Source of the DNA: Psammoneis japonica
Taxonomy: Eukaryota
Assembly (NCBI GenBank): GCA_008632985.1
Contig: QPGO01000031.1
Location: 310,001 to 374,000, forward strand
DNA length: 64,000 nucleotides
Direction: 5' to 3'
Position numbers and translations under genes: made by a program. Numbering within the stretch: the stretch's first letter is position 1; the number at the start of each line of letters is the position of its first letter. The notes beneath the pieces were generated by a model. It saw nothing but the letters and a program-made list of their open reading frames with translations, did no database searches and was not told where the DNA came from. Positions 2,310 through 61,150 of the stretch are shown here, in pieces.

Positions 2310-2879
2310 AGTCAGGCCGTTATCTTTGGGTCTTCATCAGTTTATCGGTTTCAAGTTTGAACTGTACAACGAACAACAACGACATCAAATTTCTGAATCT
2401 GAGATTTTGGATTTGGAGAGATTTGAATCATCATCCCTGCGCGCGCCTGCTCGTCGCTCGTCTTTCGGCATGTTGCGCGACGGCCAGAATGTGTGCCCCA
2501 GCTTCAGAGTTTTTGTTTCAGTTTCGACTCCATTGTGCAGCGCCCAGCACTGCCACATGCTCAGCTCTAGCTAGAGTGCCTGCTGCCAGCTAGAGGCTGG
2601 TTACAGCAGTGGTGAGAGCTGCCCACTGTGCAGCTCTGGGCAGCAGCAGGGCATGGCAAGCTGCGCTCATCGTTGGGGCCATTCAGGAGCGAAAAAACTT
2701 GGAGTGTCGTGCTGCATGCTTTGAGAGGAGAACAATGCTTTTCCACAGTCATTTTGTCCAGGGAAGCCGGTGCTGTCTTTTGTCCTTTTTCACTCTTTCA
2801 TGTGGTGATTGCATGAGCAACAGGTGTGCAGCAAAATTGATGAAAAGACTCAAATCATCTTTTGCTCTGGTGCCTCTCT

Positions 2880-4200
2880 CATTGCCGGCACATCGGCAGC
2901 CTGGGTCATCATGCAGCATTTCAGTGATCCCATTTGAGCATTGATTTGTGTTGAGCTCAAGCAGCTCCTTAAAACAACATTGCCAACTGAACCCCAGCCT
3001 GCCAATCAAATGGTTTGGCTGACTGCATGCAATGCACAGCTGCCAACAAGAGTTGGTGCATCACGGCGACGTGTCACAGCCTTTAAATGTCACAAAGGGC
3101 GTGACAAAAATGACCTTTTGTCTGCATGCATGCTGCATCATGAATTCACAGCGGAGTGGTTCATCGCAACCATTGGGCAGGAGGCCAGGGGTTCGAAACC
3201 CTGAGTGGGAGTTGTCTGCAGCAACGTTGATCACTGTCGAACGCGCAAAACTCTGTGCAGTTCTGCATGTTCCTTCGTGCGCACCCACACTGTTCTGCCA
3301 AAACCGTGCAGTGTCAGCACACGTTAGAGTAAAGAGCCGTGTGGACGCGTGACACATGGGGAGGAGTGCAACACACAGCTGCTGACAAGAGTTGATGTGT
3401 CACGGCGACGTGTTGCAGCCTTTAAATGTCACAAAGGGCATGACAAAAATGACCTTTTGTCTGCATGCATGCTGCGCGCAGTGCTGGTTAACCAACTGGA
3501 GCTGGCCACTTGACAGCGAAGCTCTGTCATTGATGGGTTCTTTGAGAATTTCCATTTTCTGGTTGAGAAACATCAGAAATTCAAATCTCCAATCAACAAC
3601 TTTGCACAAAATGTTCTCAGAGGCAGATTGTTCTGCCACACTGCCCTGGATGTTGATGACAAATTGCCCACATGGAAAAAAATTCCGCACAGCCCAAGAA
3701 TCTGCCGCGTTTTGCTGACACCTTTGACCTGCACATCAAGAAAGCAGGTCATTTTAAAAGTGACAATCATGTCAGTGTTGTTTTCTACAGCTGCACCTGC
3801 TTTTGTAAATTCAGGAGGATCAACAGTTTTGACCACACTTTGCACAACGCGGCCATCATCATGTGCCCCATCCGGGGCTGCAGCACTCCCCTGCACACTT
3901 CTTTTTGATGCCTGATCCTTGAAAGCATGATGTCCCACAAATGTTGTCAATCATTCTTTGGATGGCTCTTTGAGTTGGTCATTGTTTGCACAACCACTGT
4001 GCGCATTCCGGGCAAGAAACTGTCAAGCACACATGTGAGAGTGGTTGATGCAGAATGACCTGTTGCCAAGACAATCAAGAACCATTGACAACATGGTTTG
4101 CAAAGAGCACTGTCAAGGTGTGACACATTGGGGCATCATGCAAAATGAGTGCAATCTGCAGCACTCCTGGCTGTGCTTTTGCAGGGCAAAGGCTCAGTCA
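2880..4200 (-). pseudogene. Hypermutated third copy of the sulfotransferase-like gene, interrupted by a TRIM
   Basis: Nucleotides align to 11250-12090, e.g. ctcaagcagctccttaaaacaacattgccaactg vs ttcgagtagctccttaaaataacattgccgactg. Remnant peptides CCFKELLELNTN and FFPCGQFVINIQG. Confidence 0.85.
3028..3476 (+). mobile_element. TRIM-like miniature LTR element: 110-bp direct repeats, polypurine tract, tRNA-like internal segment
   Basis: Direct repeats at 3028-3137 and 3367-3476. GGGGAGGAG lies immediately before the second repeat. The flanks tgca/cgca may be a 4-bp TSD. The host pseudogene resumes after it. Confidence 0.7.
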
Positions 4201-4619
4201 TGTCATTTTTTTCTGTGAATGGTTGAAGATGAGTTGCTGCCCTGAGACAGCTCCTGCAAGTGAAAATTCATCAACAAAATGAACAAAGTGGGTGCACCAA
4301 AAATGAGTGTCATGAAGGTGACACATTTTCTGCAGCCAGCACATGTTTTCCTCATTTGAAAACTTTTCAGTTGTGAAGCAATTCTCTCCTGTGAATGTGT
4401 GAATGTTCCTTGTCAAATGTCTGCTGTGGATGACCTGAGTGGCTTTGTTTTGGGACAAGGCTTCTCCAATTCAAGATGATGATGCTGTGCAAATGCAGCC
4501 TGCTGGGGGTGTTGCACATCCCATGTCCACATGATGCAGGCCCTGCAAACATGTTCATTGCCCCCCACCATTTGCAGCAAGAGTGCAGTTTTTTTGTTCC
4601 CCCACTGTGGCCTGCCACC

Positions 4620-7600
4620 TCTTAGAGCAGAAGGAGCATGCACACCTGGAAGCCACAAAGAAAGCAATGGGAGCTGACGTGAGTCCAGTCTGGAGTCCAC
4701 AACCAAGGAATTTGATGAGACACATTCATGGCAAGATGATGCCCAAGATGGGTGCATGTGGGCTGCAGCCTGCAGCTGAGAATGAAACTTAGAACAAAAA
4801 CAACAAGAATCTTCTTGAGGTTGGAGCTGGTAAAAAAACAAGATTGGCAGGGTGAACAAGCAAGAAAGACAACTTGGAGGACTGGCTCACTCCAAAACAG
4901 TTGTTGATTTAAAACCCACTGCAACATGGTGATCCTCCCCACAGGAGATTTGTGATTTTACAAATTCAAATCCAGAGGATTCAGATGCAGTTGTTCCATC
5001 ACAATTGTTTTGGAACACCACCAACAAAACCATGGGAGAATGTGGGGTGGCAGTCAGCCACCCAGGGCATCATGTGTGGCTCCAAAGCCAAGTGAATGAG
5101 ACCAGCAGCAGCTTGATGAAGCCATTCAAGAACAAGAGTGGACTCAAGAAGGGACCACAGAGGACAAAAAGCAAGTTCAAGGGATGTGGAGGAGTGCTGT
5201 GGGACTTCACATGTTACAAAAGAGGAAGCCAACAGCAGCAAGCTGAGGCCTGCCTTTGCAAAACCAACTCAAGAAATCACTGCCAGAGCTGCACAGGACA
5301 ACACTTGGACTTTGGCAATTGTGTGAAAGCGACCATTGAACAACTCAAAAAGTTGACTTTGCCTGCAGCCCCAGTGAAAAACAAGATTGGGCTGGTGAAT
5401 GAAACAGATCAAAAGCCATCCACCAGGGCTGAAGAAATCAAGAGAGTTGTGCAAGAATGAAACAAAAGTGACAACAAAATGCAAAGAAGATGTGCACACT
5501 GATTTGGGGTCTTCAATGCAGCAACACAATGAGGTTGTTGGTGGAAGCCAATGATGATGACTGCGCCAGTGCTGTGAAAGAATTCAAGAATGTTGAGTGG
5601 CTGAAGACAATCAGATCAGTCATCACCTCCATGGTTGCAATGATGAGAAGATTGCAGTGCACATGAAGTGATGGGGAGTTTTTTGCCCACCAAGGGCATT
5701 TTGACTTGACTTGGTGCAAAACACTCCATGCATCAACCAATGCAACAACACTCATCAGCACAGCCATCATCAATCATCACAAGGCACTTCAAAAGGAAAA
5801 CTTGCACCACAAGGGAGATTGCACCAGAATTGGCATTGATTTCCAAGAGCAAGACAGCTCAAGCAGAGGCCAGGGAGGAATGCCTGGTGGCAGCATTTGT
5901 TCTAAAAAGTCAGCTGACAATGATGCAGCAAGCTGGACCTTGATGAATGACCAACTCACAGGAACCAACAACAACAACAACAACAACAGATGACCCAAAA
6001 CAATGGCACATGCACATGCAGAGCATGCTTTCCAGCTGGCAGGACAAGGTGAAGATGCCACAACTGGGCCCTGCTGGGGGCACAATGGTGCTGCATTCTT
6101 TGGCATCAGTGGGGACCCAAAAAAGAGTGGTGGAGGAAAGTCAGCAGAGCATGTTGCCTGTTTTGAGTGTGAAAAAAGGGACACTGTGCTTCAGGCTGCC
6201 CTGGGCTGTGTGGGTGGTCAAACAATTCATCAGACCAAGAGTGTTTCAATGCCATGACAAAGTCTCACCATGCCAACAGGAGGTGGCCAACTTTGTGCAT
6301 GTCATTGAGAGCAAAGAGCTGGATGACACCAAAGATGTGTCACTCCAGTTTTGCATTGCAACTGTGGGTTGTGGGTGGAGCAAACAAAAATGAAGCTTGT
6401 CACAGGTGCATCCAGCACAAGCAACTGGAAGGAACTGTGGACACCCCAATTGCTGCCCACTGCACAGTCAGTCTGCCTGCAATGTTTTTGTCAGTGGAGA
6501 CATGCCAAAGTTCACTCAGGAATCAGACAAGGTCTCAAATGGAAACACTGTGTGACCTGCAACAGTCACAGATCAAACTCTTTTGTTGCGCACAAGAGGA
6601 GTGGCAGCACTTGACAATTGAAGCAGCTGCCAACATTGCTGTGCTGTTGTGACACCAACCTAGAGCAGCAGCCAGCACCTTCAGTGCCAGCACTCCTCAT
6701 GAATGTTGTGGCTGAGAACAAGGCCAAGTGCTCAGCTTGAGACTTCAAGCAAGCACAGCTTGCAAGGATGATCCAGAAGACCATCAGGAGGCCAAGCAGC
6801 ATGAGGCAGTTCATTGAGATCATGCACAATGACAAGATTTTGAATTGCCTGACAACAGCACAAGATGGAACAGCTGTGGGGCACATCTGCAAACAAAATG
6901 TTGGGGTGTGATCAAAGAAGGCAAGACAATGAACAAGCAGTTGCCACAAGTGCAAGGTGCTGGAGCTTTTGGCATGTGCCAGCACAAGCAACAGGCTGTG
7001 CCAAGTCACATTCCTGTTTGGTGACAAAGATCAATGGCCTGCTGGTCATCATGGTCACAATGTTGCATCACATCAGGCTCAGAATGACCCAGCTTGTTTC
7101 TGACTGGAGGATCAACACACTGCTCAAGTGCACCAACCAATTGTGCAAAAGACGTGCAGGCAAGAAAGAGGATTTGACATCACTGTGGCCCACATGGATG
7201 GCCAATTTGAGGCGGCCATGCATGCAGGCCTGGCCATGGTGGGGATCACCCTCAAGGAAGGCTGCATTGCCTGAAGAGCATCTTGCAGAAGTGGAGCACC
7301 ATGTCTGGACAATCAAGGGCAGGTGTGCTCAGAGTGCAGTGCACTGGCTGTTGATCAAAATGGCACACTGGGGGCAGCATTCTGGCTGAACTGCTTCACA
7401 CAGCAAATGACGGGATTTTGGACAAAAATGCAGTTCTCAGGCCATTGTCATCTTGAGTTTGGACAACATGTGCAGCTGCATGAAGAGCATGATGACAGTC
7501 TGGTGAGCTGGCAATGACTGCACTGTGCCCCCAACTGGCAATGAGCAAGGCACGCACATTTGTGAGCCTGCCCATGGGCTCCCACATCAACAGGAAGCCC

Positions 7601-9660
7601 CAGGCATGGACAACCCTGTCAATGCCTGACACTGCAGTTCATTGGGTGCACCGTGTTGCCAGATGCAACAAGACCAAAAACAGCATCACTTTCCATGGCA
7701 AATCAGGCAACCTCCTCAACAATGCAAATTCTGAAAAAAAGATGAGCATCAGGAGGATTCAAACTCACAGCCATTACTTCCAGAGGATGTTGAAGATGAC
7801 AACTCCATTTGTGGGTCAGCTGACAATGACCATGATGGCAAAACTCCAGACATTTCTCTGGACCACCCACACAGTCATGGCATGCATGGCCACCAAGACC
7901 CTGGTCAATCCACAAGACACCCCCAAAAAATGGACTTGGTGCAGGAGTGGACCCACCAAGACACCAGCAAGACTGCAGGAATGGACCACAACAATGATGC
8001 CCATGATGAAAGCACAGGAATGGAAGACAGTCAAGACCAGATGCTCTGGATGATGTCAGGGAACAAGCCACGGCTGATGCTGACATTGCTCAAGAATGTG
8101 CCACAGATGCCAGCAACAGCAAGCCAGATGACAACAATGCAATTAAGAAGGGCATGGACAAGAAGCATGGTGAGAGAACCAGATCATGCTGCCTGCACCA
8201 ATGGAAGCCAAGTCATGCAACTGCCTTCACTTGGATCTCCTCAATGTTGGCTGCACACAGGGCCCAATGAAGAAGTTCCTCAAGGTGTTTGGCTCAAAGA
8301 GCGGGGGGCAGTCATGAGGAAAGAAGCAGAGCAACTGGAGGTCATGAATGTCCCAAAGGCTGTGAATGCTGACATGTTGACTGCATGATGCAAGAAGAGA
8401 AAGGAGCTGTGACATCTCATGTTTCTCAAACAAATGTTGTGGTCTGATCAAGGGACGGGGATGTGTCAATGTGCTGCATCCTCAAGAAGATCTGCACATC
8501 ATGCAAGGAAAACACATCCACCCCATCAACCATGCACACTGGCACAAATGAAGGAGGGACATGGCAACAGCAGATTTGCCAGGGTTCTTCAGGCAAACTG
8601 ACCAAGAAGGTGACATGCACCTTCATCCAAAAGGCACCATGATGCAGCTCAATCATGAAAAATGCACCAAACACATGGCACACAAGAAAGAACAAAGGAA
8701 AGTGCTGTGTCCACAGCTCTTGAAGGCCCCACATGATGGAAATGGTGATGGGGGAACACTGGCATGGAAGAAACTGCCCAGGATCCTCAAGAGCTGGGGA
8801 TTTGCCTTCTCATTGACAAGAAACAGCGCGCCATTCTTTGGCATGTGGGTGACCCAAAACTGTCCCATGTTCAACCAGAGGTGGTGACCAGCATCAGCAA
8901 GAGTCTCAAGTGCAAATGCACAATGCACTTTGGGCTCACTGTCACTTGGGGAACCTGCACAAACACCTTGGAGTGATGATCAACTGCAGTGACAAAAGAA
9001 AAGTGAAGTTGAGTGTGCTCCAATGCACCAACAATGTGTCAGAATGATGAGAGCACCATTGCGCTGGCAAAGAATGGTCAGATGTTCAGCACCAAGCATG
9101 CCAAGCTCATTGATGTTTGGTGATTTTCATGACTTCAAGGGTGACTTAACAGTCAGGGGCTGTCCAACCAAGGCACACTTGCCAATCATTCCATGAAACC
9201 ACTGAGGGGATTGCTGCTCATGAAGGTCAAAACCAAATCACAAGTGAGAACAACAATGCCCCATTTGAAGACACAGGCTGCTGCAGGAGTGTGTTGGGGT
9301 GCAAGGAGTGTGCACACCTGGAGGCCACAAAAAAAGCAATGGGAGGCATGGCAGAGCCAGCCCAGTGTCCACAACCAAAGAGTTGGGTGAGACACACTCA
9401 AGAAGAAGCAATGCTGAATGTGGCACAACATGTGGAGCTGCAGCTGGAACTGAAAACAAAAACAAAAGCAGCAAGAGTGCTCTTGGCATCAGGCAAAATG
9501 GCAAGATTGGCGAGGTGAGCAAGTGAGAAAGGTTGGTGGAATCAGCTCACTTCAAACAGCTGTTGATTTTGCCCCCCTTCAAAACACACTGATTCTCTCA
9601 ATGGGAGATTTGTGATTTTATGGATCAAAACCCAAAGAGTGGGTGTCATTGTTTCATTGG
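4620..9660 (+). mobile_element. Degenerate Ty1/copia (diatom CoDi-like) LTR retrotransposon
   Basis: Diverged direct repeats at ~4620-4980 and ~9292-9640, the latter preceded by caggagtg|tgttg. Integrase remnants EHLAEVEHHVWTIKGRC and HCHLEFGQHVQLHEEHD. RT remnants ATADLPGFF and AILWHVGDPKLSHV (cf. WHVDDLKISH). Order is IN then RT. Confidence 0.85.
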
Positions 9661-11100
9661 CCATGGATCAAACATTCATTTGTGAGTGGGCAACAAGTGA
9701 CACAAGGCATTTTTCTTGCCTGTTGTCACTGTCTGTCTGCTGAGAGCCAAAAGAGCTGTCATCGTCACACACACCATTGCCTGCACTGAGTCACTGATGA
9801 CAAGGCAAAGGCAGTGACATGTGAAAAGGTCCAGCAATCTGCTGGTTCAAGAGCAACAGGCAGTCTTGACAATGATCTGAAGTTGGAAAAAGTCTTCAAG
9901 GTGCCGCTCAGTGTTGACCAATGATCAACACAAAAGAGACATGTTGCAGCCAGCTGGCACTCTCCCCTTTGTGGGACAGGCTCTAACCCAGCTGTGTTGC
10001 AGAAACTCTGGACCAAAATCTGAAAAGGAAAAAAACACACAAGTCAGCCCAAAGCCAATCCCAAGCCAAGCACTGCTGGGAAGAAACATCAGCAGCTTGT
10101 GTTGCTTGCTCATCAAGAGGGGCAGGGGAGAGGAGCACTCTCTTTTGCTTCTGCTGTCCTGGTCACCTGCAAGCAGGCACACACATTTTCTGCTCATGTT
10201 GCTGGATTTGCTCTTGCTGCAATCTTGCATGCATTTGTGAATGTGATGACACTTCCCATCAGTTTGCCATCTTCTTGCTGCACTTTCTCTCTCTCTCTCT
10301 GCCTTGTGCATCTCTTTTTCACACATCTGGGCCAAGTGCCAGTGGGCAGCAGGCTCCAACACTTGAATTCATTGTCCACTGGAATGTCCACAAAGAGTTG
10401 CAGGACAAGTTAAAGTGCTTTGATCTGGGTGAAGTAGAGAGAAAAGACAAGTTTGACAAAAAAGGAGAAAGAGCTTGCCTGGGTTTCTGCCCTCATTCCT
10501 CATTTGAGAGGTGGCTGAGCACCCCCCAACAGCATTTCATTTCTCTTGGTTTCTCTGATGCAGTGCTGCCCTTTCCAGGAAAAGACACTTTTTGCTGCAC
10601 CACTTCCATGATGAACAAGTTTCTGCAGGTTTGCCACCCACCATGTCATTTTGAGGGCTGTGAGGGAACCACCCTTCTGCCTCTGCACTCTGCGCATGTC
10701 ACGCAGCAACACACAGCATGCTGCTGCTGCACCTCATTCAATGTTGCATGACTGGCAACTGTCACATGACATCATGCAACAGCCAGCCATGAATGTAAAG
10801 ACAATTGGCAGCAAAATGCTGGTGTGTTTGCATTGAAAGCTCTACTTGACCTTTGAGCATTGTGCACCCACAAACAAATGTTGCATCTCTCTGTCATGCT
10901 GCACACACCAGCCAAGGCTGCACCCTCCTCCTCCTCCTCCAAACCCACACAATGGAAGCAGCCATTCTTGCCTTGTGACACACCTGCAGCACTCCTCCCC
11001 CCAGGCTAATCTCTGGATGTGCTTGCATTCACAGATCACAGCCACAAGAAGGATCCCTGGTTAGTGCGTGCTGCAGGCAGATTTTTCATGTGCCAGCTCT
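9660..11100. other. TpA/CpG-depleted degenerate sequence, possibly an older retroelement (continuing at 4240-4620) into which the copia inserted
   Basis: Same composition as the neighbouring copia, with only faint pol-like peptide traces on the minus strand. Confidence 0.3.
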
Positions 11101-11246: not shown

Positions 11247-12251
11247 TTATCCAACGTATCGGCAGTCTGGATCATGATGCAGTTCAGTGACCCCATGTGC
11301 ATATCGATTTGTGTTGAATTCGAGTAGCTCCTTAAAATAACATTGCCGACTGAACCCCAACCAATCAATTAAATGGTTTAACTGACTGGCATTCTTCAAC
11401 CAATTGGAACTATTTAATAGCAAAGCTCTGTCGCCGAGGAGGTCGGCGAGAGTTTCCATTTTCTCGTTGAGAAATGTTAGTAATTCTTCACTTCCCCGTT
11501 TGATGCGTTTGAACGATTTCTTCTGCGAGACAGATTGTTCTGTCACATTACCCCGGATATTAATGACGAATCGTGCACATGGAAACATTTCTACAATCCA
11601 GTCTGCCATTTCGCCAATATCCTTTCCCCGCACATCATTAAGAAAGCGGATCGTTTTAAAGCCAACAATCGTGTCGGCGTCTTCTTCCATGATGGCGCCT
11701 GCTTTCGTGAGATTAGGAGGATTGATAGTTTCCATCATACTCTGTGCAACACAGCTATATGCCCCCTCTGGGACTGGAGCATGTCCCCACGCATTTCTTC
11801 TCGATGCCGCTCGCTTAAAATTTTTATTCTTCCGAATGTTGTCAATCATTTTTCGGATGGCTTTTAGTTGGTCATTGTTTTCGCCCGCCATACGTACTCC
11901 AGGCAAACTGTCAAGCATATATGTGAGAGTGGTTGATGCGGAACGACCTGTCGCCAGGATAATTAAGAATCGTCTTCGACATGGTCTGCACAGAGCACTA
12001 TCGAGGCATGATGTATCGGGGCACCACGCGGAATGAGCGTAATCTGTGACATTCCTGTCTGCGCTTCTTCCGGGTAAAGGCTCCATCACCGTTGAAGTTC
12101 TATTTTTTGTACGAATGGTCGATGCTGAGCTACTACCCTGATGCAGTCCCCGTAAGTAAACATTCATTGACAATCCAAACAACGTGGATACGGTCAGAAC
12201 GGGTACCACGATGGCGAGGCATGTTCTGTAACCAGTGCTTGTTTTCCTCAT
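11247..12251 (-). CDS. Type II membrane sulfotransferase-like P-loop protein (intact copy)
   Basis: 334-aa ORF with an N-terminal TM helix, ATGRSASTTL (PAPS-binding-loop-like), GFKTIRF and ARFVINIR. Normal Tyr and TpA content. Confidence 0.8.
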   Translation of the reverse strand: MRKTSTGYRTCLAIVVPVLTVSTLFGLSMNVYLRGLHQGSSSASTIRTKNRTSTVMEPLPGRSADRNVTDYAHSAWCPDTSCLDSALCRPCRRRFLIILATGRSASTTLTYMLDSLPGVRMAGENNDQLKAIRKMIDNIRKNKNFKRAASRRNAWGHAPVPEGAYSCVAQSMMETINPPNLTKAGAIMEEDADTIVGFKTIRFLNDVRGKDIGEMADWIVEMFPCARFVINIRGNVTEQSVSQKKSFKRIKRGSEELLTFLNEKMETLADLLGDRALLLNSSNWLKNASQLNHLIDWLGFSRQCYFKELLEFNTNRYAHGVTELHHDPDCRYVG

Positions 12252-12767
12252 TAGACTTTCTAGTTTCAGCGGTAATTTCTTTCGTTCTCTTTCGAGGTTG
12301 TGACCGGCCTTTATCCGTTTGGGCCTTGTCGAGGTGGTCAGTTGTCAGTACCGTAGGCCCCTTGTTCTTTTCGGGCTTGATTTGCTTCCTTCTGAGTGAT
12401 TTTGTGAGACGAGCGTTGGAATGTTTCATACGTCCTTCATGTACGTAGGTTTTAGTTTCATGCGTTGACATAATTTCGGTCCCGCCTGTCCGTATGTACG
12501 GTAGTGTCCGCGAGGGATTTTTCATTTTTCGATTTTTTCAAGACACATCATAAATCATAGCCTTACCTCATAGGTACCGGTAGCACAGGTGACACAGCGG
12601 GAGATAGACGAGATAGATCGAAGGTGACATGTTACAGTACGTCCGGTGGGCACTCGGCACTCGGCATCCATTGAAGAACCGACCTAAGCCCTAAGCGAGA
12701 GATTGGCTCTCGTCTTTCTTGCTCCTGATCCCAAGGACTCGAGTTCACGCTTCACATGTAACAAAGC

Positions 12768-14646: not shown

Positions 14647-14817
14647 CAACGCTGTCAACGTAAATAGAACTCTATAATGCATAAACTATTATGCAATCTC
14701 ATCACCATTGCGTGTCTTGTTCGACCGCAGCTAGACAGTTGCTATCAACGATGTCAACATAAACCAAACTCTAAAATGCATAAACCATTATGCAATCTCA
14801 TCACCATTGCGTGTCTC
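14630..14817. repeat. ~90-bp imperfect tandem duplication between convergent tilS and MATE genes
   Basis: cagcta(a/g)acagttgcta...ttatgcaatctcatcaccattgcgtgtct occurs at ~14630-14717 and ~14728-14816. Confidence 0.9.
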
Positions 14818-29668: not shown

Positions 29669-29792
29669 TGAGATCCCCAGATCGCACGTCGGCGGGCGGC
29701 AAGATCCGGCAGATCGATCGCATCCAAAAATAGACTGCAGTCACACAAAGAGGAAGCCAACAAAGCTGGAGGCAAGAAAAAAAAACACAAAC

Positions 29793-47063: not shown

Positions 47064-47511
47064 AAACGAGTGCTAATAAGGATGGTGCTCGAACGTTTTT
47101 GAAATAAATTGAAAATTTAATTTATGCAAGATAAATGTATCATGTGTACAAAATCGTTGGACGATCTCTCTACAAACAAGGCAGAGCTTGTGTATTGACA
47201 GTATATAACGTTCGTTCAGAGCCTCCTCTCGTAGAGCTGAAAAATTGCGTCCGCAGTAGCATAAGGTAGCCGGAATTCATCGACAAAGGACTTCCAATCC
47301 AAACTAGAGAAAAAGAGAGAGAAACAAAACAAGGGGGGGTGTGGAGCAATGCCTTGTAATGTCGCAGACTTGATACTGTTGTGTACTCGTATTCGTGGAG
47401 AGAAGAGTATCGAAAAACGTACCAAACCAAAAAGAATAGACATGGCATCTTGATGTTTTGCTCTCTTGTGTATATCTCTCTCTCTCAAGTTCTTGTCTTG
47501 TCTTCTTCTTC

Positions 47512-49827: not shown

Positions 49828-52800
49828 TGTTGGAGAACATCTCCTGGATCACAAAAAATGTGAGAAACCTGGACATGTTGAAGAGAACACACTGCAGCTC
49901 CTGGCATTTGGTGAGACTCTTTCTGACTGAGATTTTGTTGTCTCAATGATCTCTCTCACCTTTCAGCTCATCACACATCTCATTCTTTTGGGGAGCAAGG
50001 TGTTCAGTTTGCACAATTGTGTCATCATTGGCAACATGAGGTGTCCTGTTGCATCACAAATTTGAAGTTTGTCCAAAACAACTTTTGGGCAACGCCCATG
50101 GCCACTGCAAGCAGCAGCAGCCAAGGCCAGCACATCATTGAGTGGCACAGGAGGAAGCCGAGCAGGGCTCCCTTTGTGGCGACATTCTTGACTTGCTGGT
50201 TTTCAACACATGCTCCAAAACAGTCTCTGGTTGGAACTTCATTTGGTGCTCAAAGGCTCCGTCCAGCATTCTGTTGATTGGGCACTGAATGTGCCTGCAC
50301 AATGAGTTGCACAGAAAGTGGCAGATCAAACAACCCAGGCCAAGGATGTGGTCCTCATGGTGGTGGCAGAGGTGATGAGAGTCACACAGCAGGTCCTGTA
50401 ACCCAAAAAAAAGACCAACATCACTGAGGAAGTGCTTTCAGCCTGAGATGAAGTTTCATTGCATTTCATCACTGAAAACAGCAGCACTTGCAATGCTGTG
50501 CATGAAGCCATCAAAGAGAAGATCCTCATCCACAATGTGTGCAGATCTGCAAAGGACACATGAAACACAAGGACTTTGGATCTGAGGTGTGGCTGCCTGA
50601 GGTGCATGCATCCACAACAACAGTGCCAGAGTCATCACAGCTGCAGATTTGTCAGCACACCAAGCTGGAGTTCAAATGGCACAAAGACAAAGAGCTGGAA
50701 CATCAGTGCAAAGGAGTGGAGCCAGCACTTGAGTGCAACAACAAAGTGTGAGGCAGTTCAAAGAGAACAAGACAACCGCGCTTGCCAAAATCCAAATGAC
50801 TGCTGCACCACCAAGCTGTGATGAAGCAGAGAGTGAAAGGTGACCTCAGTTGCCCAAACACCAGGGATGACCTGACCAAGTTGTTGACCCTTCAACCACC
50901 AGACTTGAGCAAATCTCCACACATGACATTTTTGTGCCATGTTCATTGCATCATTGTAAAAGTGCATGACACGTCACAAATCCTCAAGTGGAGCAAATCC
51001 CCTGGTGGTTGAAGGGCCAAAACTGATCCAGCCCCTTCTTGTGCTTGACTCAACAAAAGAGGTTGACACCCGTTTCACACACTTGGTGCCAGCACTTCCC
51101 TGCAGAACATGCTTGATGTGAAGCAACAAGAGAATGAATTGCTGAATGACCACCTGTCAAGATTCAAAAATCAGAAAGATGCTGCAAGCAAAGGTCTGGG
51201 AGACAAAGTGCCAGATGGACTCATTTCCAACAAGGAGGAGTGCAAGGAAGGCACTGCAAGAGTCCAGACTGTGCCACAATGAGAGACAGCATTCAAGACA
51301 TGGATGACATTCCTGCTCATGGAAAACAGCAACAACTGCCACCACAAGAGCTTGAAGAAGAGCTTTTGAGAGACTGCAGCCTGGGTGACAAAGACACCCA
51401 TCTGAAGACCCAGACAAGGCAATGAATGTGCTGCTGAATCATCCAAAAGATTGCAACCCTCATGAAAGACACAGCAAGAGGAACAATGAGAGTGTGCAAA
51501 CAACAAGAACAAGAATGAAAAGTCTGGCAATCCAAAGGACCAGAGCCATGCTCACCAGAAGGGTGGTCAGAGCAGCGCTGCAGCACATCACTGTTGCGGT
51601 GAATTGAGCCACAAATCCCCAGACATCAAGCATCAAAATGACATTGCACTTGACCATTGGCTCAAGAAAGCCAGAAAGAAGCCAGATGCCAGGGGACAGA
51701 GTCACACACAAACACAAGATGAGGGCCACTCATTCATGGATGGTGATGACAGGAGCGTTGACACCACCAGATCCAACCAATCAACCCACCCCACCAGCCA
51801 AAGCAGGAGCACTGCTGCATGACATGGTGTGGATCACAACTGGCAAATGAGATGCCAGAGAGACAAGCACAAACCAAACCAACAAAGATGTTGATGTGAG
51901 CGAGATCATCCTCAACAATGGCTCCACCCTTTGCATGGCAGCAAGCAAGCTGGAGACACCGCCAGTGCACAAGGTGCAGCTGGCCAAGACCAAGATCAAT
52001 CCATCCCCAAGTGGCGCAGGAGTAGACACTTTAGACAAAGACTGCAACACCACACCTGGATGGGGGGCATGGAGCTTGGATCACAGAATGCAGCAGCAGT
52101 GAACATCCTCAGTTTGAAGGATGTGAAGAGCAAGCACCACACAACTTGTGACAACCAAGTGGCAGACGAGCACCGACTGCCAGAAAAGAAGACTGGCAAG
52201 CAAGTTTTGGTGTTCAAAGTGAATGACGTTGGACTGTGTGCCATTGTGCCAAACCAGAAGCACAAAAGTGAGTCACACATGAGCATGCTGTCAAAGAACA
52301 AGAGCAACAAGAGTCACAGGAGTGCACCTGGAACTGTGGCTCTAGCAGCAGAACAGAGCTCCACAGGCAAACTCTGCAGGCTGCATCAAGAGGGAGGCAG
52401 CAAGTTCCAAGCAAGCAATTGGACTGTGCTGCAAGGCCGGAATGCCCAACATGAGAGATTTCAAGCTGTTTTTGCGCTCCAGTTGGGTGAAGAACTTGTC
52501 CATTGCACCTGAACACGTGGACAGGATGGTGGCCATTTGGGGCCACCAACAGATGTGCTTGAAGGCAAGACCAAGTGTGCACACCATTCCCATGTGAGAG
52601 GAACAACATTGTTGCTGTTCCATCTGAGACATGCAAGAAGCAGAGAGAAGGCATGATCCTCTGCGTTGATGCCATGGAAGAATGCAGTGTTAAGTTGCTG
52701 CACATGACAGACAAGAGATCAAGCACCAATTGAGTGTGACACTTAAGTCCAAGAAGCACGTTGACACATTTTTTCAATTCACTGGAGACATGATTCTCTG

Positions 52801-55800
52801 ACAGCAAAACATGGCTCTGTCCAAGATTGACTTTGTAAAGTGCAATCCGGAGTTCAAGGCTGTGCCAGTGGAAGTCACAGATGGTGCAAATGTGGAGCTG
52901 ATGTCCATGAATGCAAATGACCACACATTTCTGAAGTTGGGCAGAGCATCCAGACCATCACAAAAAACCCAAGTTGATCTGCAAGCATGCTGTGGTCAAG
53001 AACACTGTCATGTCGAACATGCACCCACAGAGGGAGAGAATTTTTGACACTTGCAGTCCTCACACCATTGTGCAATGAAGGAACCTTGGCCACAACAAAC
53101 ACTTCTTTGAGCTCACATTCTGGGAATTTGTGTTTTCCTGTGCAGAGAACAAACCAACAAACACCATGGATGCGCATGTGGTGTTGACAGCATCCACCTG
53201 CAACTGCATTTTGACATGCCCCAGGGCGAACACTGCACTGTGAACTTGCACACAGGCAAGCTTTTCAATCCAAGCAAGTGCACTGCTGTGCCCTTGGACA
53301 ACATGTGCGTGCAAGCTGTTGAGAAGATGGCCACATTGCAAGGCATCAAAGAACCAAAATTCATGGGCAAATGTGGAGATGATCTGCATGATGCTGATTG
53401 AACTGCAGAAGTGGACAATGATGAAAGCAAAAGTGAAAGCAAAAGCAACAGCGACAGAGAAGACAAAGACAAAAATGAACATGATGACACTGACTGCATG
53501 GAAAGTCAGAAGAAAAGGGCTGTGAAGATGAAGCTCCTGACTCAGATGATGAGCATGAAAAAGCAAACAAGATCCCAGGCAATGAAAGATCCAGCCACAA
53601 TCAACAGCATCAGGGCTGAGAAACTGAGGAAAAAGAGACTGGGAACATCACAGAGAAGATGAAGCATTTGAAGAAGATGATGATTCCCAAGAAGACCAGA
53701 GATGGAAAGGAGAAAGATCAGAAGAAGAGGCAAGAGTCTTGTCTCTGGCAGAAAATCAAGGAGCAGCAGCCACATCATTCAGTGCATCCTTCAACATCAA
53801 ATCATGCAAACACAGAGAAAAGAAAGTTCAATTTGCAGGAGTGTGGCAGACACCAACAAAGTGGAACAAGAACAAAACAGGCTCAATGCTGCCATTGTTC
53901 ACAAACAAACATGAGCCCCAATCCAGGAGATGACTTTGAATGTGACATGGCAACAGGAGCAGCACTGGCACAATTCATGTGCAAGATCAGTGTCAACTCC
54001 AATCAGGAAAGGGTGTTTCCTTTGCCCAACAGCATTTGCTGCATGAAGGCCCAACAGTGTTTGGCCAGAGGGGGCATGATCTGTCAGAAAAAAGAAGGTT
54101 GGACAACTCCATGATGGGGTGTGCTTTGCACCAACATCAGTCAAATGCGTGACTCTGACTGAGAGGGAAAATGATGTGGTCACCTTGATGTTCCCAGTGG
54201 AGAAGCGAGACAGTCACACAACAGGGCAAATGGTTTGTGATGGAAAACCAACCAGAGAATGGCTGAACAAGAGGATTTGTCAGCCAGCCTGACAGCATCA
54301 TTGGAGGAAGGAACACCAGCAACAGCTGTTGTTGACACTGTGGAAGGGTGCAACATGATGAGTGCTGATGCACCAAATGCGCTCTCACAGAAGTTGACTC
54401 TGGAGCCTGAGGAAGGCAAAAACTGGATCATGATGAAGATTGCAGGAGTGTTGGTCAACCTGCCAGTGAGCATTGATCCCAACCTGCAGGGGCCATGTGT
54501 GGTCATGGAAAAGGGGAAGGGAGCCATCCACATCCAAGCAATTGGAGCCATGTGTGGCATGTTGGTTGCAGCTCTGCTGTGGTGCAAGCAACTTTGCAAG
54601 GATTTGGAGAAAATGGGGTTTAAGTTCAACCTGTGCGACCCATGCATTGCAAATCAAACAGTCAATGGCAAGCAGCACGCAGCATGTTTCCACATGGATG
54701 ACCTGCTGTGGAGCCACAAGAGTTCAAAGGCAAACAAAAAATTTTTAAGCTGGCTGAACAAGATGTGTGGAAGCCATGGTGAAGTTGTTGCAACACAATG
54801 GAAGAGAAACGACTGTCTTGCATGACTGTGGACTTCAGCTGCAAGGGCAAGGTCAACGTTGACACGCCCAGCTGTGCCCACAAGATGATTGATCAGTTCC
54901 CAGAAAAGATCAAGAGAGCAGACACTGCAACCATGATGCCAGCTGGAGAGAACATGTTTGACACCAGCAGCACTGGATTGCCAATCAACAAAGCAAAGAC
55001 ATTCCATGCATGGGCAGTCAAAGGACTGCTTGTGTCCAAGAGAGGCCATGTGGATGTGAGCGCTGCTGTCACAGCATTGTGAGCATGAGTTGGAGAGCCT
55101 GCCAACAAGGGTTGGGAAAGCCAGTCCACTGTCTCAAGCATTTGAACTGGACATGAAACAAAGGAGTCTCCACATTGAGCGCAAAGGACCTCCAAGTCAC
55201 CCAAGTGGCACGTGGGTGCATCGTTCACAGTGCATCTAGATTTCAAGAGCCACACAGCAGGAGGAGGAGTTGTCGCCATGGGCAGCTGAGCAGTGCAGGC
55301 CACATTGACTGAACTTGCAGGAGTTGATGACACAACGACCATGATTCTGTGGACAAAGCTGTTCATGGAGCATCAGGGGCAGGGCATCCAATCAACAAGA
55401 ACATCCTGCATCAGAACAACAAGAGCTCCACGCTGTTAGAAACCAGTGGATGCAGGAGTGTCAGAAAGCAATCCAGAGCACTCAGCATTCGGCGTTTCTT
55501 TGTTGCCAATGTCAGCCAGATCAAGAAGGGCAATCTCAGATCACAGCATCATCCAACCCCAGCAACATGCTTGGAGACTTCATGACTGAGTCAGTGCAGG
55601 GTGAGAAGTTTCAAAAATTTAAACAAGCCATCATGGGCTGTCAACTTCAAGCATGACAGTGGCATTTCCTGTTTGTGACATCAGATGAGAGTTCTGATGT
55701 GTGCAAGTGAAAGATCCCTGCAACTGGGAATGGGTGATGAGCCACACACTTTTTGACCAACCACAATTTGTTCTTCAGAACAACTGTCAACAATGAGCAA

Positions 55801-57247
55801 GAACAACAAGAATGAACTCAGTGTGCTGCACAACATGATGACCCAGTGGTGGCCATTGGACTGCTGGCCTGTGTTTCAACAGAGACTTTTGGGTTTGATT
55901 GTGAAAGAAGATTGCTGCACAGCAATGAGAAAGAGAAAACACCGCAGCGGTGCTAAAGCAGGAAGAAGAAGCTGGCTTGTGACCCTCGCGTCTGCTGAGA
56001 CACCACAGATCCCTCCCAGGTGCTCAACATCATCAAAGAAATGAAAAAAGAGTCTGTGGATGATGCACTTTCACACTGGGGGGACACAGAATCAAAGGGC
56101 TCATGGAAAAAGGACTGTGGTTGATTGGGTGCAAGTCAATGAAAGCAGCACACAAAGAAAGGGCACAACAGAGCCTCAAAGTGCACAAGCATGTCTCAGC
56201 CACTGTGCCAATGTTCTCCATCTACAACATGCCAAGGGGAGCATCTGAGTCTGAATGACATGCTTGCGAAGCATGCAAGACCAAAGAATTTTGGCAAATT
56301 GTTGGAAGCTGAGCCTCAAGGCAAGGCAAACTGTGTTGTCTCAGGCAACATGGCAGCAAGAAAGGGTGCATCAGAGATGAGCACATTTGCCAGATCAAGG
56401 GGCATTGATTTTGAGTTCACCCTGGACAAGAACAACATCCTGCCTGTGGTGTGGGCAGGTGTGGGGAATGTGGTCCCCTTGCAAAGCTCATCAAAATCCC
56501 AGCTGCAACATTGCACAGAGTTGCTGCAGACTTGTGTGAGGGATGCAGATGGCACTGTGTGTGATGCAAGGAAGTTGGCACATTGTTCTTCCACCATCAT
56601 GACACCACCTGTGTGAGCACCTTGTGTGGGTGGCTCTGCAATGACATGGAGCTCTTTGATTTGACTCCCAAGACAGTCAACAGTTGGGTTGTGGACATGA
56701 TTGACATGGTCTGGAGAGATTTTGTTGTTCTTGTTTGGAGTGTTTTGTGAAGTGTGTCTGTGACACATCAAACTCATTTGATGACATGGTTGATTTTTTC
56801 TGCCAATGGACAGAACAATGCCAGCTTGCACACTGCTGATTTGAAGGATGTTGGCAATGAGGCAACATGACAGAGGGAGCCATTTCCCCTTGAGACCAGC
56901 TGGACCTGTCTGGCAAGCAAAACTGCAATGCAAGTGGCAGGAGTGTGTTGGAACAGCTGGATCATGGCAAAACACAAGAAGCCCAGGTGCATTGAAGAGA
57001 AGATGCTGTGGATCCTGATGCTGCAGATTCAGCAACTCTTTGTGATTGAGATTTCACAATCAACAGTCTCTCTCACCTTTCAGCTCATCTCACTCTTTGC
57101 AGTGAATTGTTTGGTTTGTGCAATTTTGTGTCATTGGTTTCACCAGTTTTCTGTTGCACCACAAGTTTGAAGCTTCTCTGACAACTTCTGGGCATCCCAC
57201 AGCTGCTGCAAGCAACCAAGGCAAGCACATTGACTTGCTGGTTCAAC
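49828..57247 (+). mobile_element. Degenerate Ty1/copia (CoDi-like) LTR retrotransposon
   Basis: Direct repeats start TGTTGG at 49828 and 56946 (the latter after caggagtg), with similarity to ~50208/57247. Protease IILNNGST; RT AMCGMLVAALLWCK, FNLCDPC and FHMDDL; RNase H KWHVGASFTVHLDFKSHT and ILHQNNKS. Confidence 0.88.
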
Positions 57248-57249
57248 AC

Positions 57250-60200
57250 GAGTCCCTCAAAAAGAAGAGAGGAGCCTCTCTTTGTTGTTGTGTTTTTGCA
57301 AGGCTGGCATCAGAAGGGAAGAGAGAGTCTCTTGCTCTCCCCTCCCCACCCCAGCTCTTCTTCCTCCAAGATCTTCAGATCCAGTGGCCTTGGAGCAGAT
57401 GATTCCAGAAACCTTTTCATGAAGCCAGAAAGAGCTGGCATCATTTGTTGGTGTTGGGGAGGAGACATGGCAGGTGATGTTGGAGCCTGAGTCAGAGAAA
57501 ACATCATGCTGGGAGTGTGCTGGCTGGGCTTGACATGGGAGCTGAAGTCACTGGCACACAGCAGCTGTTGTGCCAACTGGGCTCAAAATGGGAGATTTGC
57601 AATGTCAGAGCCAGAGCTGTCACAGAGCTGGTTGGCAATGCAGCTGGTGCTGTGCCAGCTGGACTCACATCAAAAATGGGAGCCAGAGTTGCTGTTCTTG
57701 GTGTCAGTGAAGGAGCCTCCAGATCATGCTCAGCTCCTGTGCAAATGATGTGACATTGCTCACCTTTGTCAAAATGTTGGATGAAAGAAATGTGGCAGAT
57801 TGGGCACATCAAAGCACTTGTCAGACATCCTCAAAATGGGCCACAAGAGCCCAAGTGTTGGCTTGGCAGCTGTCAATGATGTTGTGTTGTGAGCTCATCC
57901 AAAGAGATCTGGAATGGTCCCACAGGCGCAGCTGGAGAGCTGACCAACTTCAAGATCTGTGGTGGAAATGACAGTGTGTTGTTGTCCTCAATGATGACAA
58001 GATTTGGCACCAGACAGCAGGTCAGGGGGTGTGTGCCAGCAAGTGAGGGCCACTTGACAGACAAATGATTGGGCACCCACTTGTTTGAAGTGCTCCCACA
58101 GAGTTGTTTGTTTTTCAATCAACACACCCCAACAAGCCCCAACAATGCACAGGGAGTGAAAGTTGACACTTGAATTTTGACAGAGTCTGTGTGGGGCAGA
58201 ACAAGGGTCAGACAATTTTGGTGGTCAGGATGTTTGATGATGGGTTCCTTCATGGCCGCCATTTCCAGGGATGATGTTTTGGGAAAGCACCATCTTCTCA
58301 TCCTTCTTGTCTGTGACAATTTTCTTGTTGAGGCGTGTTCCAAGGTTAAATCAGAGAGCAGGTGTTGTTGTGCCATGTTGAGCCAGAGTTCCCCAGCTTC
58401 CTCCCAACTTGCAATTGTCTGAGTTGCTGCCAAGGGCTCTGACAGCAATGTTGACAACATGTCATGAAACAATGGTGAGAAACATCTGGTCAATTGGGCT
58501 GGTTGCCAAAAATGCCAAAGACCAGAAAATCAGATTGTGCTTTTCATCTTCTCAGCTCTCTGGCACTTCATTTGTCACCTGCTGCTCTGGAGCTGCAGCT
58601 GCAGGTTTTCACTTCTTCTTCAATGCCATTGAGCTGCAGCAGCTGCAAAGAAAGATGAAAGAAGGGGCAGCAGCACAAGTGGCTTTTGGAGCAATGGTGC
58701 TGTTGGCACAGCTGATTGCTTTGCTCAGTCTTCAAAACTGGTGGTTGTCACTGAGCATGATGACAAGCCACACTGGTCAACTGTCGGCTCTCTGCTTCCA
58801 GAAAAAAAATGTTGGGATCAAAGCTGCACTCTTTTTTGTTGAGCAACAGCGCAACATGGTGGAGAGAACATTGAAGAGGGTTGCAAGAGCAAGACAATGT
58901 GTGCTCTGCACTGTTCCTTTGGATCCAACCAAGTTCTTTGCTTGGGGGTGTTCATCTGTCATGCACAGCTGGAGCCAAAGAACACACACACACACATGTG
59001 GCACAGGTGCGCTGACTGTGCATCATCTGCCTCCTGCCACCTCTCACCCAGATTGTGCAAACTTTCAGCTGCTTGCAGCTCTGCAATGTTGTGGCAGCAA
59101 AGTTGCTCTGGAAAATGCCACTTGCAGGGGCTTTGGAGGACACACGTTGGCCCTGTCTTCCAAGACTTGCAAGAATGAGGTGACATCTCATTTGATTTTT
59201 CCCATGATGTTGTCAGTGCCCTGCTGTGCACCAATGTGAGACCCAATCAAGTCAGAAAACAAACAGCTGCTTGAAGCCTTGCACCAATTTGCAGGCTTGT
59301 TGCAAGTTCTTTTTGCACAAGCTTTGAGACAACACTCTTGTTTGCTCTGTGGCAGGCTGGAAAATGGCTGTCTTGTGCTCAGCAGACCATCACCTCAGAT
59401 CTCATCCTGGTTTCCAACAAGCACTCAAGAATCAACAAATGTGCAAAGATGTTGTTCTGTTGGGTGATTTTTGGATTGGTGTGGGAGACCTTGATGGGCC
59501 ACCTCTTGTTTCTCCCATGTGTGGGGTGCCACCTGAGTGTCATGAGAAGACCTTGCCTGTTTTTCATTCATTGCAACCAAGCATCCTGCCTGCAAGTGCA
59601 GTGTGGTGCCAACCAACCATCAAACAAGTGAGTCTGAAGAAGAGATTCATGCATGCCTGTGGACAGCAGTCATGAGTTGACAAGCTTTTCACTGTGCAAG
59701 ATGCCGCGCCAATGACAAGCAAAGAAGAAGGCGAAACTGAGGCAGAACAAAACAGGGAAGAGGGGGCCACGAGCCAGGCAGATGATCTGTCATTGATGCA
59801 AATGACAAATGGGAAAAGACAATGGGGTGGGTGCATGGAATTCTGCTGCAGAAGATCGACCATGCATTTTTGTGTTTTGCGTCGACGACCCCATGGCCTC
59901 CTGAGTGGGCTTTGTCACTGCAGTGTTTGCATCTGTCACTGTGTTTCACAAGACAATTGATTGAAGTTGAGGCATCAGAGTTGATCTAGCTAGAACCATG
60001 AGAACATCCATGTCATGTTTCTGCTTGATGCTTCCTTGTGGTGAAGTGATTCGTCTGTGGCTGTGGAGAGACATGGAGCACTTGGCTGTCTTCTGTCATG
60101 TGAGTCCTGCACTCTGCTGCGGGCAGTCCGCTGAGAGAGACCTGCTCTGAGTCTACCCACTGTGACAAGTGCTGCAGAAGCCATTGGGACCCAAGTGGCG

Positions 60201-61103
60201 TGCATCCTTTTAGAATGAGCTGCGGCGTTGCCATCTTCTTGACAGACGTGCGCGGTCTGTCTCCAACAAAGACAAGACTTTGAAGAGTGCCATGAAGTCA
60301 TCTGCAATCTGCGTGTGAGAGATGTGCTGACTCTGTTTTGGACATCCCATTTTCTAAAAACCCCATTGTGCACGAATCGTCTTCCCTTTCGAAACTTGGC
60401 ACATTGGCAAGTGGTGGGTGGTGGATGGACTTGTTTCAGAGGTGAAACAATGACTGTCTGCTGTCGGCGCTGACGGCGCACAGAGGAGGAGTGCCGGGAT
60501 GGTTGTCGTTGTCATCGTGAGGGCGGCGACGAGCAGCCGCTCTCTGTCCATGCCGTGTGGCATTGTCTTGAGAGTCCTCCAAGGAAGATGAAGTGACAAC
60601 GGTGGGGTGAGTGATGAGGAAACTTTCACGGAAAGTTTCTTGGACTCTGAATGCCAGCAGCCGCGACACAAGCTGAAACTGTGGAGTGTCAGCTTGTCGA
60701 AGTTCATCAAAGGTAACATCAGAGCATCGCAGATGGTGAAGCATGCTGCGGGTCTGACAAGGTGGTGGTGCAGGGGCGCGAACTCGCAACCAAAGAGGTG
60801 AACTTCGGAACGCACCAAACAGCGACTGCACAAGACCAAACACACAACTTCCACCCCGGTTGTTTGGTGCGAAATCTGACATGTGGCCTTCATTTGTTGG
60901 GTTGATTGGAGCAGTCCACACTTCCTCAGCCCTGCGAATGTCGTCTTGATGCCGCTGCTGCCTGTCCACCCTTCATTGCTTTCGCTTTCGCCGACGCGCT
61001 GCCCCTCTTTGAGATCTCTCACGTTCTTCCTCTGAGCCCCAACCCACAAACCCCACCCGTCTTGACTCGACTGAGGACATGCCAGTGGCGGGGCAGAGTC
61101 GCT

Positions 61104-61140
<37 letters not shown>

Positions 61141-61150
61141 CTGTTGTCGG
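57250..61150. other. TpA-depleted degenerate sequence of unidentified family, probably two elements split at ~59990
   Basis: TA is nearly absent throughout. CpG is nearly absent before ~59700 but common after ~60000. Confidence 0.5.
61101..61146 (+). repeat. (GCT/GTT)n microsatellite
   Basis: gctgttgctgctgctgttgctgctgct... Confidence 0.9.

Follow-up and report, generated by a model that had tools for sequence, protein, structure and literature searches.

In a 64-kb stretch of the diatom Psammoneis japonica (contig QPGO01000031.1, positions 310,001 to 374,000; hereafter the window, in whose own coordinates all positions are given), discrete domains made of transposons and duplicated host genes have lost nearly all of their TpA dinucleotides. 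We propose that these domains very probably record a domain-directed hypermutation that converts TpA to TpG or CpA in place, with ordinary methyl-CpG decay added on top; this degree of confidence applies to the process itself, and any guess about the enzyme is excluded from it. The observations on which we build are the mutational spectrum, a direction of change in which TA is ancestral, the continuation of change after a DNA duplication, the discreteness of the domains, and their support by sequencing reads. Since the window shares both spectrum and footprint with a phenomenon just described in Bigelowiella natans, a chlorarachniophyte (Rhizaria) with an intron-rich genome, we infer that the same kind of process has been at work in both.

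A per-kilobase dinucleotide profile combined with segmentation delimits six sharply bordered TA-poor segments, 32,150 nucleotides (nt) in all, which contain 125 TA, whereas 1,330 would be expected at the rate of the other 31,850 nt (1,318 TA). TA-poor blocks hold 0–16 TA per kilobase (observed/expected ratio, o/e, 0.00–0.30), against 21–54 elsewhere (o/e 0.36–0.76). The lowest values belong to domain 5 (49201–61150; 22 TA, o/e 0.03, with CG 0.18, TG 1.90 and CA 1.78) and domain 1 (2601–11100; 29 TA, o/e 0.05, with CG 0.12, TG 1.98 and CA 1.82), followed by domain 4 (43801–45900; 8 TA, o/e 0.06), in which CpG is depleted in part (CG 0.35). CpG is mostly retained in domain 2a (20701–25900; TA 0.10, CG 0.69) and retained in domain 2b (26301–28600; TA 0.125, CG 0.79), and domain 3 (37901–40000, plus strand; TA 0.14, CG 0.78) holds the downstream, hypermutated copy of a HECT gene. 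Flanking DNA has a TA o/e of 0.39–0.76 and a CG o/e of about 1. When the segments are pooled, TA stands at 0.06 inside versus 0.60 outside and CG at 0.35 versus 1.00, while TG (1.76 versus 1.17) and CA (1.71 versus 1.16) are up about 1.5-fold. The remaining 12 dinucleotides shift by at most 0.11, except for GC (1.17 versus 1.00); AA is 1.16 inside and 1.15 outside, TC is 1.00 inside and 1.11 outside, and the G+C content, near 0.48–0.53, is unchanged across the domains.

Such clustering is far from what composition would give by chance: 21 of the 64 one-kilobase windows contain five or fewer TA, which occurs in none of 200 first-order Markov simulations, and no simulation leaves a gap without TA beyond 517 nt, whereas the longest in the window measures 2,124 nt. 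The borders are sharp to tens of bases. At 49198, for instance, the preceding 150 nt contain 17 TA, the next TA lies at 50399, and no gradient is visible. Loss of CpG is nested in the loss of TA, as all 41 of the 500-nt windows that are low in CG are low in TA too, 12 windows are low in TA with normal CG, and none is low in CG with normal TA. Methyl-CpG deamination has thus acted only inside TA-poor DNA, well behind the loss of TA where the two can be compared, and both processes drive the oldest domains to near-zero TA and CG and doubled TG and CA at constant G+C. The nesting suggests an order of events, or else two layers of one silencing state. These results uphold the compositional claims of a preliminary description of this DNA, which had reported five domains almost without TA: they are found again, as six segments, the second domain being split by a TA-bearing stretch at 25.9–26.3 kb, and the border that it gave as an example, with TA at 49198 and then at 50399, is exact. 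The TpA and CpG profile that it had proposed, run here on the 64-kb window, resolves discrete TA-poor segments, with CpG lost as well.

The direction and the timing of the changes can be read from a tandem duplication whose units (23151–25991 and 25982–28824) are 97.5% identical. Each unit carries, on the minus strand, a Crypton/Ndc10-like open reading frame (ORF) of 716 amino acids (aa) with TGA as its stop codon, copy 1 at 23536–25686 (0.6% tyrosine, Tyr) and copy 2 at 26367–28517 (0.4% Tyr), and relatives of both ORFs, at 41–44% identity, carry PF16787 (Ndc10/CBF3 domain 2; Crypton-like elements). Over 2,841 aligned bases the units differ at 69 positions, of which 66 are interchanges among TA, CG, TG and CA and only 3 are of another kind. 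The interchanges comprise 18 doublets with TG in one copy and CA in the other, 21 sites at which TA faces TG or CA, and 9 sites at which CG faces TG or CA; with 39 sites that involve TA, the confinement of change to TpA seen in B. natans is found here as well. A TG/CA doublet needs two hits, and CG has changed at only about 2.6% per copy, which makes TA the ancestor of the doublets. The presence of both outcomes at one site in sister copies means that the process is symmetric and specific to the dinucleotide. Among single events there is a weak preference on the sense strand, TA>CA being seen 16 times against 5.

The encoded proteins tell a similar story. In 25 alignment columns where at least two of three relatives have Tyr, the two copies read His/His in nine, Cys/Cys in three, His/Cys in three, Tyr/His in one and Tyr/Tyr in one. 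The His/Cys columns have His in the first copy and Cys in the second, and in the Tyr/His column Tyr survives in the first copy and is His in the second, so these columns record independent hits after the duplication. Tyr makes up 0.4–0.6% of the window copies, versus 3.0–4.8% of the relatives compared; across 153 family members the median is 3.4% and the 5th percentile 2.1%, and only P0105 and P0048 (Tyr 0.6%) are similarly poor. The first of these, P0105 (a fragment of 170 aa; Tyr 0.6%, His 5.3%, Cys 5.3%), is 65% identical to the window protein over 121 aa and may be another hypermutated copy, from this or another organism. In a scan of metagenomic sequence with the Crypton-like alignment, 90 pattern matches came down to 2 loci, each of which has normal TA (o/e 0.57–0.61).

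The same units allow the rates to be estimated. Taking about 75 ancestral TA sites per unit (18 still intact, 21 hit once, 18 doublets that disagree and roughly as many that agree), we arrive at a change per copy since the duplication of about 0.6 for a TA site, 0.026 for a CG site and about 0.0005 for any other base. Judged from these counts, the TpA rate would be roughly 1000 times the background and roughly 20 times the CpG rate.

Duplicated host genes were affected too. The normal copy of a HECT ubiquitin-ligase gene (34824–36972, plus strand; PF00632, E 3e-67), in a region with a TA o/e of 0.46–0.66 over 34–37 kb, provides an unmutated reference for its tandem duplicate in domain 3, where 38835–39997 is 75% identical at the DNA level to 35814–36974, at an offset of about 3,022 nt; the copies share 54% amino-acid identity over 191 residues. 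The normal copy has 37 TA, and the depleted copy shows CA or TG at 25 of them and retains one, again with a weak sense-strand preference (TA>CA 17 versus 8). This pair offers a natural contrast for what marks one copy for hypermutation. A normal sulfotransferase-like gene (11247–12344, minus strand; PF13469; TA o/e 0.60–0.69) likewise serves as the unmutated reference for a hypermutated paralog in domain 1 (3490–4359, minus strand), which is 69% identical to 11398–12255. Where the normal gene has TA, at 37 sites, the paralog has CA or TG at 32 and retains one; where it has CG, at 50 sites, 41 read TG or CA and again one is retained. This pseudo-copy is without strand bias. It is the only one hit among three sulfotransferase paralogs in the window; the copies at 1.3–2.1 and 11.2–12.3 kb are normal. 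The tandem-unit differences, the polarity at Tyr codons and the host paralogs are three independent lines of evidence, and they show TA to be ancestral and the DNA to have changed where it now sits.

The sulfotransferase pair also shows 16 differences of TG versus CA, and the frequency of such differences between paralogs suggests that the oldest domains cycle repeatedly, TG and CA drifting to TA or CG and soon being pushed back. Outside TA and CG, transitions from A or T to G or C (0.14–0.16 per site) are matched by the reverse ones (0.13–0.15), with no bias from AT to GC. GC-biased gene conversion, which we considered as a candidate, is excluded, there being no such excess outside TA and CG and no change in G+C.

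The two large domains contain retroelements in an advanced state of decay. Domain 5 includes a degraded Ty1/copia retrotransposon, with a copia-type reverse transcriptase remnant at 53791–55653 (plus strand) whose relatives carry PF07727 at 45–51% identity, plus further sequence, and domain 1 holds a degraded copia-like element with a weak match to copia reverse transcriptase at 8555–8970. In the domain 5 remnant, none of nine consensus Tyr is retained and seven are Cys or His, while at six positions with consensus Arg the residue is now Cys, Trp or Gln, the signature of CpG loss. A Pfam search of six-frame read-through translations of both large domains (about 20 kb of element DNA) returned no family, and a Pfam-type search of 20 stop-free pieces gave nothing below E 0.006; the elements were detected solely by word-based protein search and tblastn. 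This failure of profile searches indicates that the proteins have been extensively rewritten. A search for pairs of long terminal repeats (LTRs) in the large domains yielded only internal repeats of 69–71% identity, too short and too diverged for LTRs; they carry 12 TG/CA doublets between 4631–4960 and 9303–9620, and 8 between 49916–50135 and 57035–57230.

Sequencing reads support the depleted sequence. Run X1 holds 0.92 of 1,084 sampled 31-letter words from 47000–56999, of which about 7.8 kb belong to a depleted domain. Contigs assembled from this run show no differing letter over 50970–52663, 52635–53260 and 55624–56305, and one over 56301–61091, and their depth in domain 5 is 67–71, versus 55–66 for the listed contigs that lie mostly in the flanks. 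Exact words at a depth like that of the flanks rule out an artefact of base calling. Twelve listed single-contig differences from the window lie in 43–50.3 kb, so X1 is not merely an identical consensus; seven of them are changes of CpG to or from TpG or CpA and one is a change from TA to TG at 44494, numbers too small to interpret. The run provides support from accurate reads and not from an independent isolate. Many similar X1 contigs pile up over 50.3–57.7 kb and 45.0–46.3 kb, and a single contig covers 57.7–61.0 kb, which suggests, without proving it, that for part of domain 5 there is no other close copy. Contigs of a second run, X2, lie only on flanking genes and skip 43201–43307 and 62403–62497 in the manner of introns; the domains are uncovered by them, and X2 was not used as evidence.

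In our model, a mutation process would attack certain silenced segments of nuclear DNA where they lie and turn TpA into TpG or CpA, that is, A:T into G:C at either base of the step. Its targets in the window would be transposons, both copia and Crypton-like, and duplicated host genes without function. The chemical step is probably enzymatic, with an enzyme recruited to silenced chromatin that would modify one base of TpA. Because the hits fall on a single HECT copy and a single sulfotransferase copy, with their paralogs spared, and because the large B. natans target is single-copy, targeting appears to follow the chromatin or silencing state and not sequence redundancy. Under the genetic code, TA>TG/CA never makes an in-frame stop, since TAA turns into TGA or CAA and TAG into TGG or CAG; it is for this reason that long ORFs, including both of 716 aa, persist in ruined genes. 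Damage would instead come through missense changes (Tyr>His/Cys, Ile>Met/Thr, Leu>Pro/Ser), and signals that contain TA, such as TATA, AATAAA and the TAA and TAG stops, would be erased too. Relative to its normal density, the TA that remains amounts to 0.31 in TTAA, 0.26 in TTAG and 0.23 in CTAG (0.12–0.31 across YTAR contexts including CTAA, Y being a pyrimidine and R a purine) and is nearly absent from RTAY (ATAT 0, ATAC 0.009, GTAT 0.011, GTAC 0.045), counts that are small and confounded by new TA from ordinary mutation.

This model keeps one part of the interpretation given in the preliminary description, namely an in-place, TpA-specific A:T>G:C mutator, and abandons two others. The replacement of TA by TG or CA that had been noticed between paralogs in the window is seen in both pairs (HECT, 25 of 37; sulfotransferase, 32 of 37), and the argument that neither fungal repeat-induced point mutation (RIP) nor deamination of 5-methylcytosine explains the loss of TpA gains support from the paralogs, the tandem units and the Tyr polarity. 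The process had also been called repeat-targeted, which is at odds with the spared HECT and sulfotransferase paralogs and with the single-copy target reported in B. natans, and undescribed, a word that no longer holds now that the same spectrum has been reported in B. natans (bioRxiv 10.64898/2026.01.13.699255).

Several points weigh against the model or narrow it. The analysis covers one 64-kb window, the silenced state of the domains is assumed, and run X1 represents one sample and one study, is possibly the source of the assembly, and has no library type on record. In a control comparison of two normal copies, 14 of 33 TA also read TG or CA and 7 are retained, the exchange being symmetric; together with identities of 69–75% and partial saturation, this makes the paralog pairs weak by themselves. 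The tandem copies have 18 TA in common where a homogeneous-rate model predicts about 3, which points to uneven susceptibility among sites or to an exempt part of the unit. Outcomes do not form strand-coordinated clusters (runs test, P 0.27 and 0.59), and 53 polarised sites reveal no clear flanking-base rule for TG versus CA (16 versus 11 in the informative class), so that no particular enzyme is indicated.

As for the chemistry, our leading guess, offered tentatively, is that adenine in 5′-TA-3′ DNA is deaminated to hypoxanthine, which is copied as G; the window does not discriminate between this and oxidation of thymine. In the latter case, which we find rather unlikely, a TET/JBP-type dioxygenase would oxidise the T of TpA in silenced elements to 5-hydroxymethyluracil (5hmU) or 5-formyluracil (5fU), which would mispair with G and give T>C. 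The SAR group (stramenopiles, alveolates and rhizarians) includes diatoms and chlorarachniophytes as well as dinoflagellates. In a dinoflagellate, 5hmU is reported to prefer TA and TC and, as the product of a TET/JBP homolog, to silence transposable elements (TEs) (PMC11572971), and the sense-strand bias of the Crypton-like copies (TA>CA 16 versus 5; Tyr>His over Tyr>Cys) fits, weakly, a lesion on the non-transcribed strand. Yet TC, at 1.00 inside versus 1.11 outside, is not depleted, the sulfotransferase pseudo-copy has no strand bias, and the mutagenicity of 5hmU and 5fU is itself presumed. Repair itself could be biased: the very-short-patch repair of Escherichia coli depletes CTAG, and by analogy a T:G-directed glycosylase or endonuclease might fix replication mismatches at TpA to C:G within methylated domains. 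The sharing of domains by TA loss and CpG decay would fit the recruitment of such repair to methylated DNA, but TA is nearly gone where CpG still stands at about 0.7–0.8 of expectation, a gain of about 1000-fold is at or beyond what replication errors could supply, and the process in B. natans, reported to be on in only 11 of 15 lines, resembles an active, regulated mutator; we consider biased repair improbable.

A mutator acting on resident DNA also has to be set against accounts in which the DNA was altered before it arrived, by selection, or only in the data. Copies might arrive already mutated if the RNA or cDNA of retroelements were hyper-edited in an ADAR-like or APOBEC-like manner, and both the copia-type retroelements of the largest domains and the sharp borders, as if whole elements had come in pre-mutated, are compatible with this. 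For domains 2 and 3 the idea is already contradicted, as the copies made by tandem DNA duplication have since diverged at TA sites, the Crypton-like element counts among DNA elements, and the hits extend to host-gene copies, tandem as well as dispersed. An A that follows another A is also edited by ADAR, and AA is untouched (1.16 versus 1.15). With the B. natans mutations moreover reported to arise in integrated DNA, editing before integration is very improbable as a general account. Elements could in principle avoid UpA and CpG in their RNA to escape host nucleases and sensors, and joint suppression of the two is reported for RNA viruses and cytoplasmic RNAs (PMC3829696, PMC7879557), but o/e values of 0.02–0.06 extend over DNA that does not code and over dead copies riddled with TGA stops, and related elements elsewhere have normal Tyr and TA. 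The destruction of conserved Tyr in catalytic domains contradicts such selection directly, and we give it hardly any credence. Modified bases are a cause of transition-type miscalls on nanopore platforms, and those of heterochromatin might have been miscalled here. The exact 31-letter words and the X1 contigs, with flank-equal depth and 0–1 differences each, speak against this, as do the fixed and differing outcomes in the tandem copies; a half-resolved modification would besides give alternative words at half depth, and a sequencing or assembly artefact can be regarded as practically negligible.

The genes that flank the domains (PP-loop/TilS-like, MatE, HECT and NIF phosphatase) have ordinary composition. 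Four relatives of the TilS-like protein carry eukaryote names and all are diatoms (Amphora coffeaeformis, Seminavis robusta, Fragilaria crotonensis and a Bacillariaceae metagenome-assembled genome), with no match above 53% identity. Long ORFs in a single exon, along with the two skips of roughly 100 nt in the X2 contigs, are in keeping with a diatom and not with B. natans. No tRNA genes were found in the window. A CTAG-rich palindromic motif, resembling GCTGCCACTCTAG, lies at a border (43766–43822), with a hairpin at 43.8 kb, and similar words occur at 2571–2583 and 61180–61192, that is, at 3 of 10 domain borders in all. The motif has 7 matches with at most two mismatches, against 1.3 expected and none of 100 shuffles reaching 7; it may represent the end of an element, a target for insertion or a boundary element. 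A (GCT)14 microsatellite (61101–61143) sits exactly at the right border of domain 5, and apart from it the tandem repeats of the window are unremarkable. In DNA of normal composition, a 99-nt unit occurs twice (14617–14816, 89% match) between the ORF at 13849–14646 and the MatE ORF at 14788–16590, overlapping the start of the latter.

To our knowledge, no mutational spectrum of this kind had been described in the searchable literature before April 2026. Our literature search found no TpA-directed hypermutation in diatoms or other stramenopiles, and the B. natans preprint was the sole description of the spectrum. What is new here is a second, distant host lineage, a nearly saturated footprint, duplicates of host genes as targets, the coupling to CpG decay, and evidence from a natural tandem repeat that change continued after duplication. 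If the pattern holds genome-wide, a TpA-specific DNA hypermutation system would be known from a second organism, this diatom, and for the first time from a stramenopile. We see a real possibility, short of an expectation, that a dedicated genome-defence pathway is common to distant SAR lineages (diatoms and chlorarachniophytes) and perhaps wider, with an enzyme that acts at silenced chromatin and a symmetric TpA step. Such a pathway would disarm invaders permanently, through loss of Tyr codons, TATA, poly(A) signals and TAA or TAG stops and without nonsense codons, and would be a functional mirror image of fungal RIP, built on different chemistry.

A second, distant carrier opens the way to a search for the enzyme by comparative genomics, among deaminase-fold or dioxygenase genes that co-occur with the footprint, and it brings the phenomenon into a group whose model species include transformable and CRISPR-ready ones. 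The consequences are also practical. Hypermutated elements evade profile-based TE annotation, long ORFs in TA-depleted DNA are no evidence of function, and silenced transgenes in such algae may be mutated, beyond being merely switched off. If adenine deamination is the true chemistry, a natural TpA adenine deaminase acting on double-stranded DNA would be of interest to base editing.

The closest known case is that of B. natans, for which a TpA-only spectrum of de novo mutations in silent viral inserts has been reported (Mettrop et al., bioRxiv 10.64898/2026.01.13.699255, 14 April 2026). In the mutation-accumulation lines described there, 230 of 231 changes in two viral regions that are integrated and silent are A>G or T>C, all at TpA. 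The rate in these regions is about 6e-7 per site per generation, compared with 3.5e-10 in the rest of the genome; only 11 of the 15 lines show the effect, and the large target is single-copy. The same preprint reports 124 genomic clusters of windows poor in TpA and rich in CpA and TpG, with low-TpA genes enriched for reverse transcriptase and DDE transposase domains, and its authors propose an ADAT2-like DNA adenine deaminase, presenting it as a suggestion without a test. Shared with the window are an exclusive change of TpA to TpG or CpA, an excess of about 1000-fold (here by the tandem-unit estimate), discrete regions (here with borders within tens of bases) that need not be repeated, and, apparently, foreign or mobile DNA among the targets. 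The long-term footprint is also the same, loss of TpA and gain of CpA and TpG being clustered in both; in the window, one-kilobase stretches low in TpA reach an o/e of 1.5–2.0 for TG and CA. The differences begin with the host, a chlorarachniophyte there and a diatom here. The large viral region of B. natans is reported as mildly depleted (Rho TpA 0.45), whereas the domains of the window approach saturation (0.03–0.14). Genes of copia reverse transcriptase and Crypton-like type are hit here, but so are tandem and dispersed copies of host genes. CpG decay is superimposed here, and the words "CpG" and "diatom" are absent from the text of the preprint. De novo events were observed in B. natans, whereas in the diatom only the footprint is read, from sequence.

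Among other systems, fungal RIP (RID, DIM-2) has the same outcome, an irreversible, dinucleotide-specific and sharply bounded transition mutagenesis of mobile or duplicated DNA that leaves a compositional scar. RIP, however, converts C to T, for the most part at CpA, giving rise to TpA and to stop codons, whereas the process here destroys TpA and makes no stops; the RIP indices of the domains are accordingly reversed, with TpA at 0.06 and CpA and TpG at 1.7–1.8. RIP also hits both members of a duplicate, and here one HECT and one sulfotransferase copy are mutated while a normal HECT copy and two normal sulfotransferase copies are intact, contrary to the homology dependence of RIP. Diatom TEs are reported to be CpG-methylated, and the RID-related DNMT4 of diatoms is described in the same source as without known function (PMC9998398). 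Methyl-CpG decay has its counterpart in the loss of CG to TG or CA in four of the six segments, confined to TA-poor DNA; it cannot remove TpA, it has been slower here (about 0.026 per CG versus about 0.6 per TA since the tandem duplication), and as a sole cause it accounts for none of the TA loss and leaves the 12 TA-low windows with normal CG unexplained. APOBEC3, acting on cDNA, and ADAR, acting on double-stranded RNA, likewise hypermutate selfish nucleic acids on behalf of the host and have nearest-neighbour preferences, a 5′ U in the case of ADAR as quoted in the B. natans preprint (10.64898/2026.01.13.699255). They differ in that both act on replication intermediates and not on resident chromosomal DNA, that APOBEC gives C>T, and that ADAR is metazoan and also edits A after A; the unchanged AA and the divergence at TA sites after a DNA tandem duplication set the window apart from RNA hyperediting. 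Finally, the 5hmU of dinoflagellates, another SAR lineage, is described as a thymine modification that prefers TA, is made by a TET/JBP enzyme and silences TEs (PMC11572971); the source presents it as an epigenetic mark and not a mutator, and it also prefers TC, which is undepleted here.

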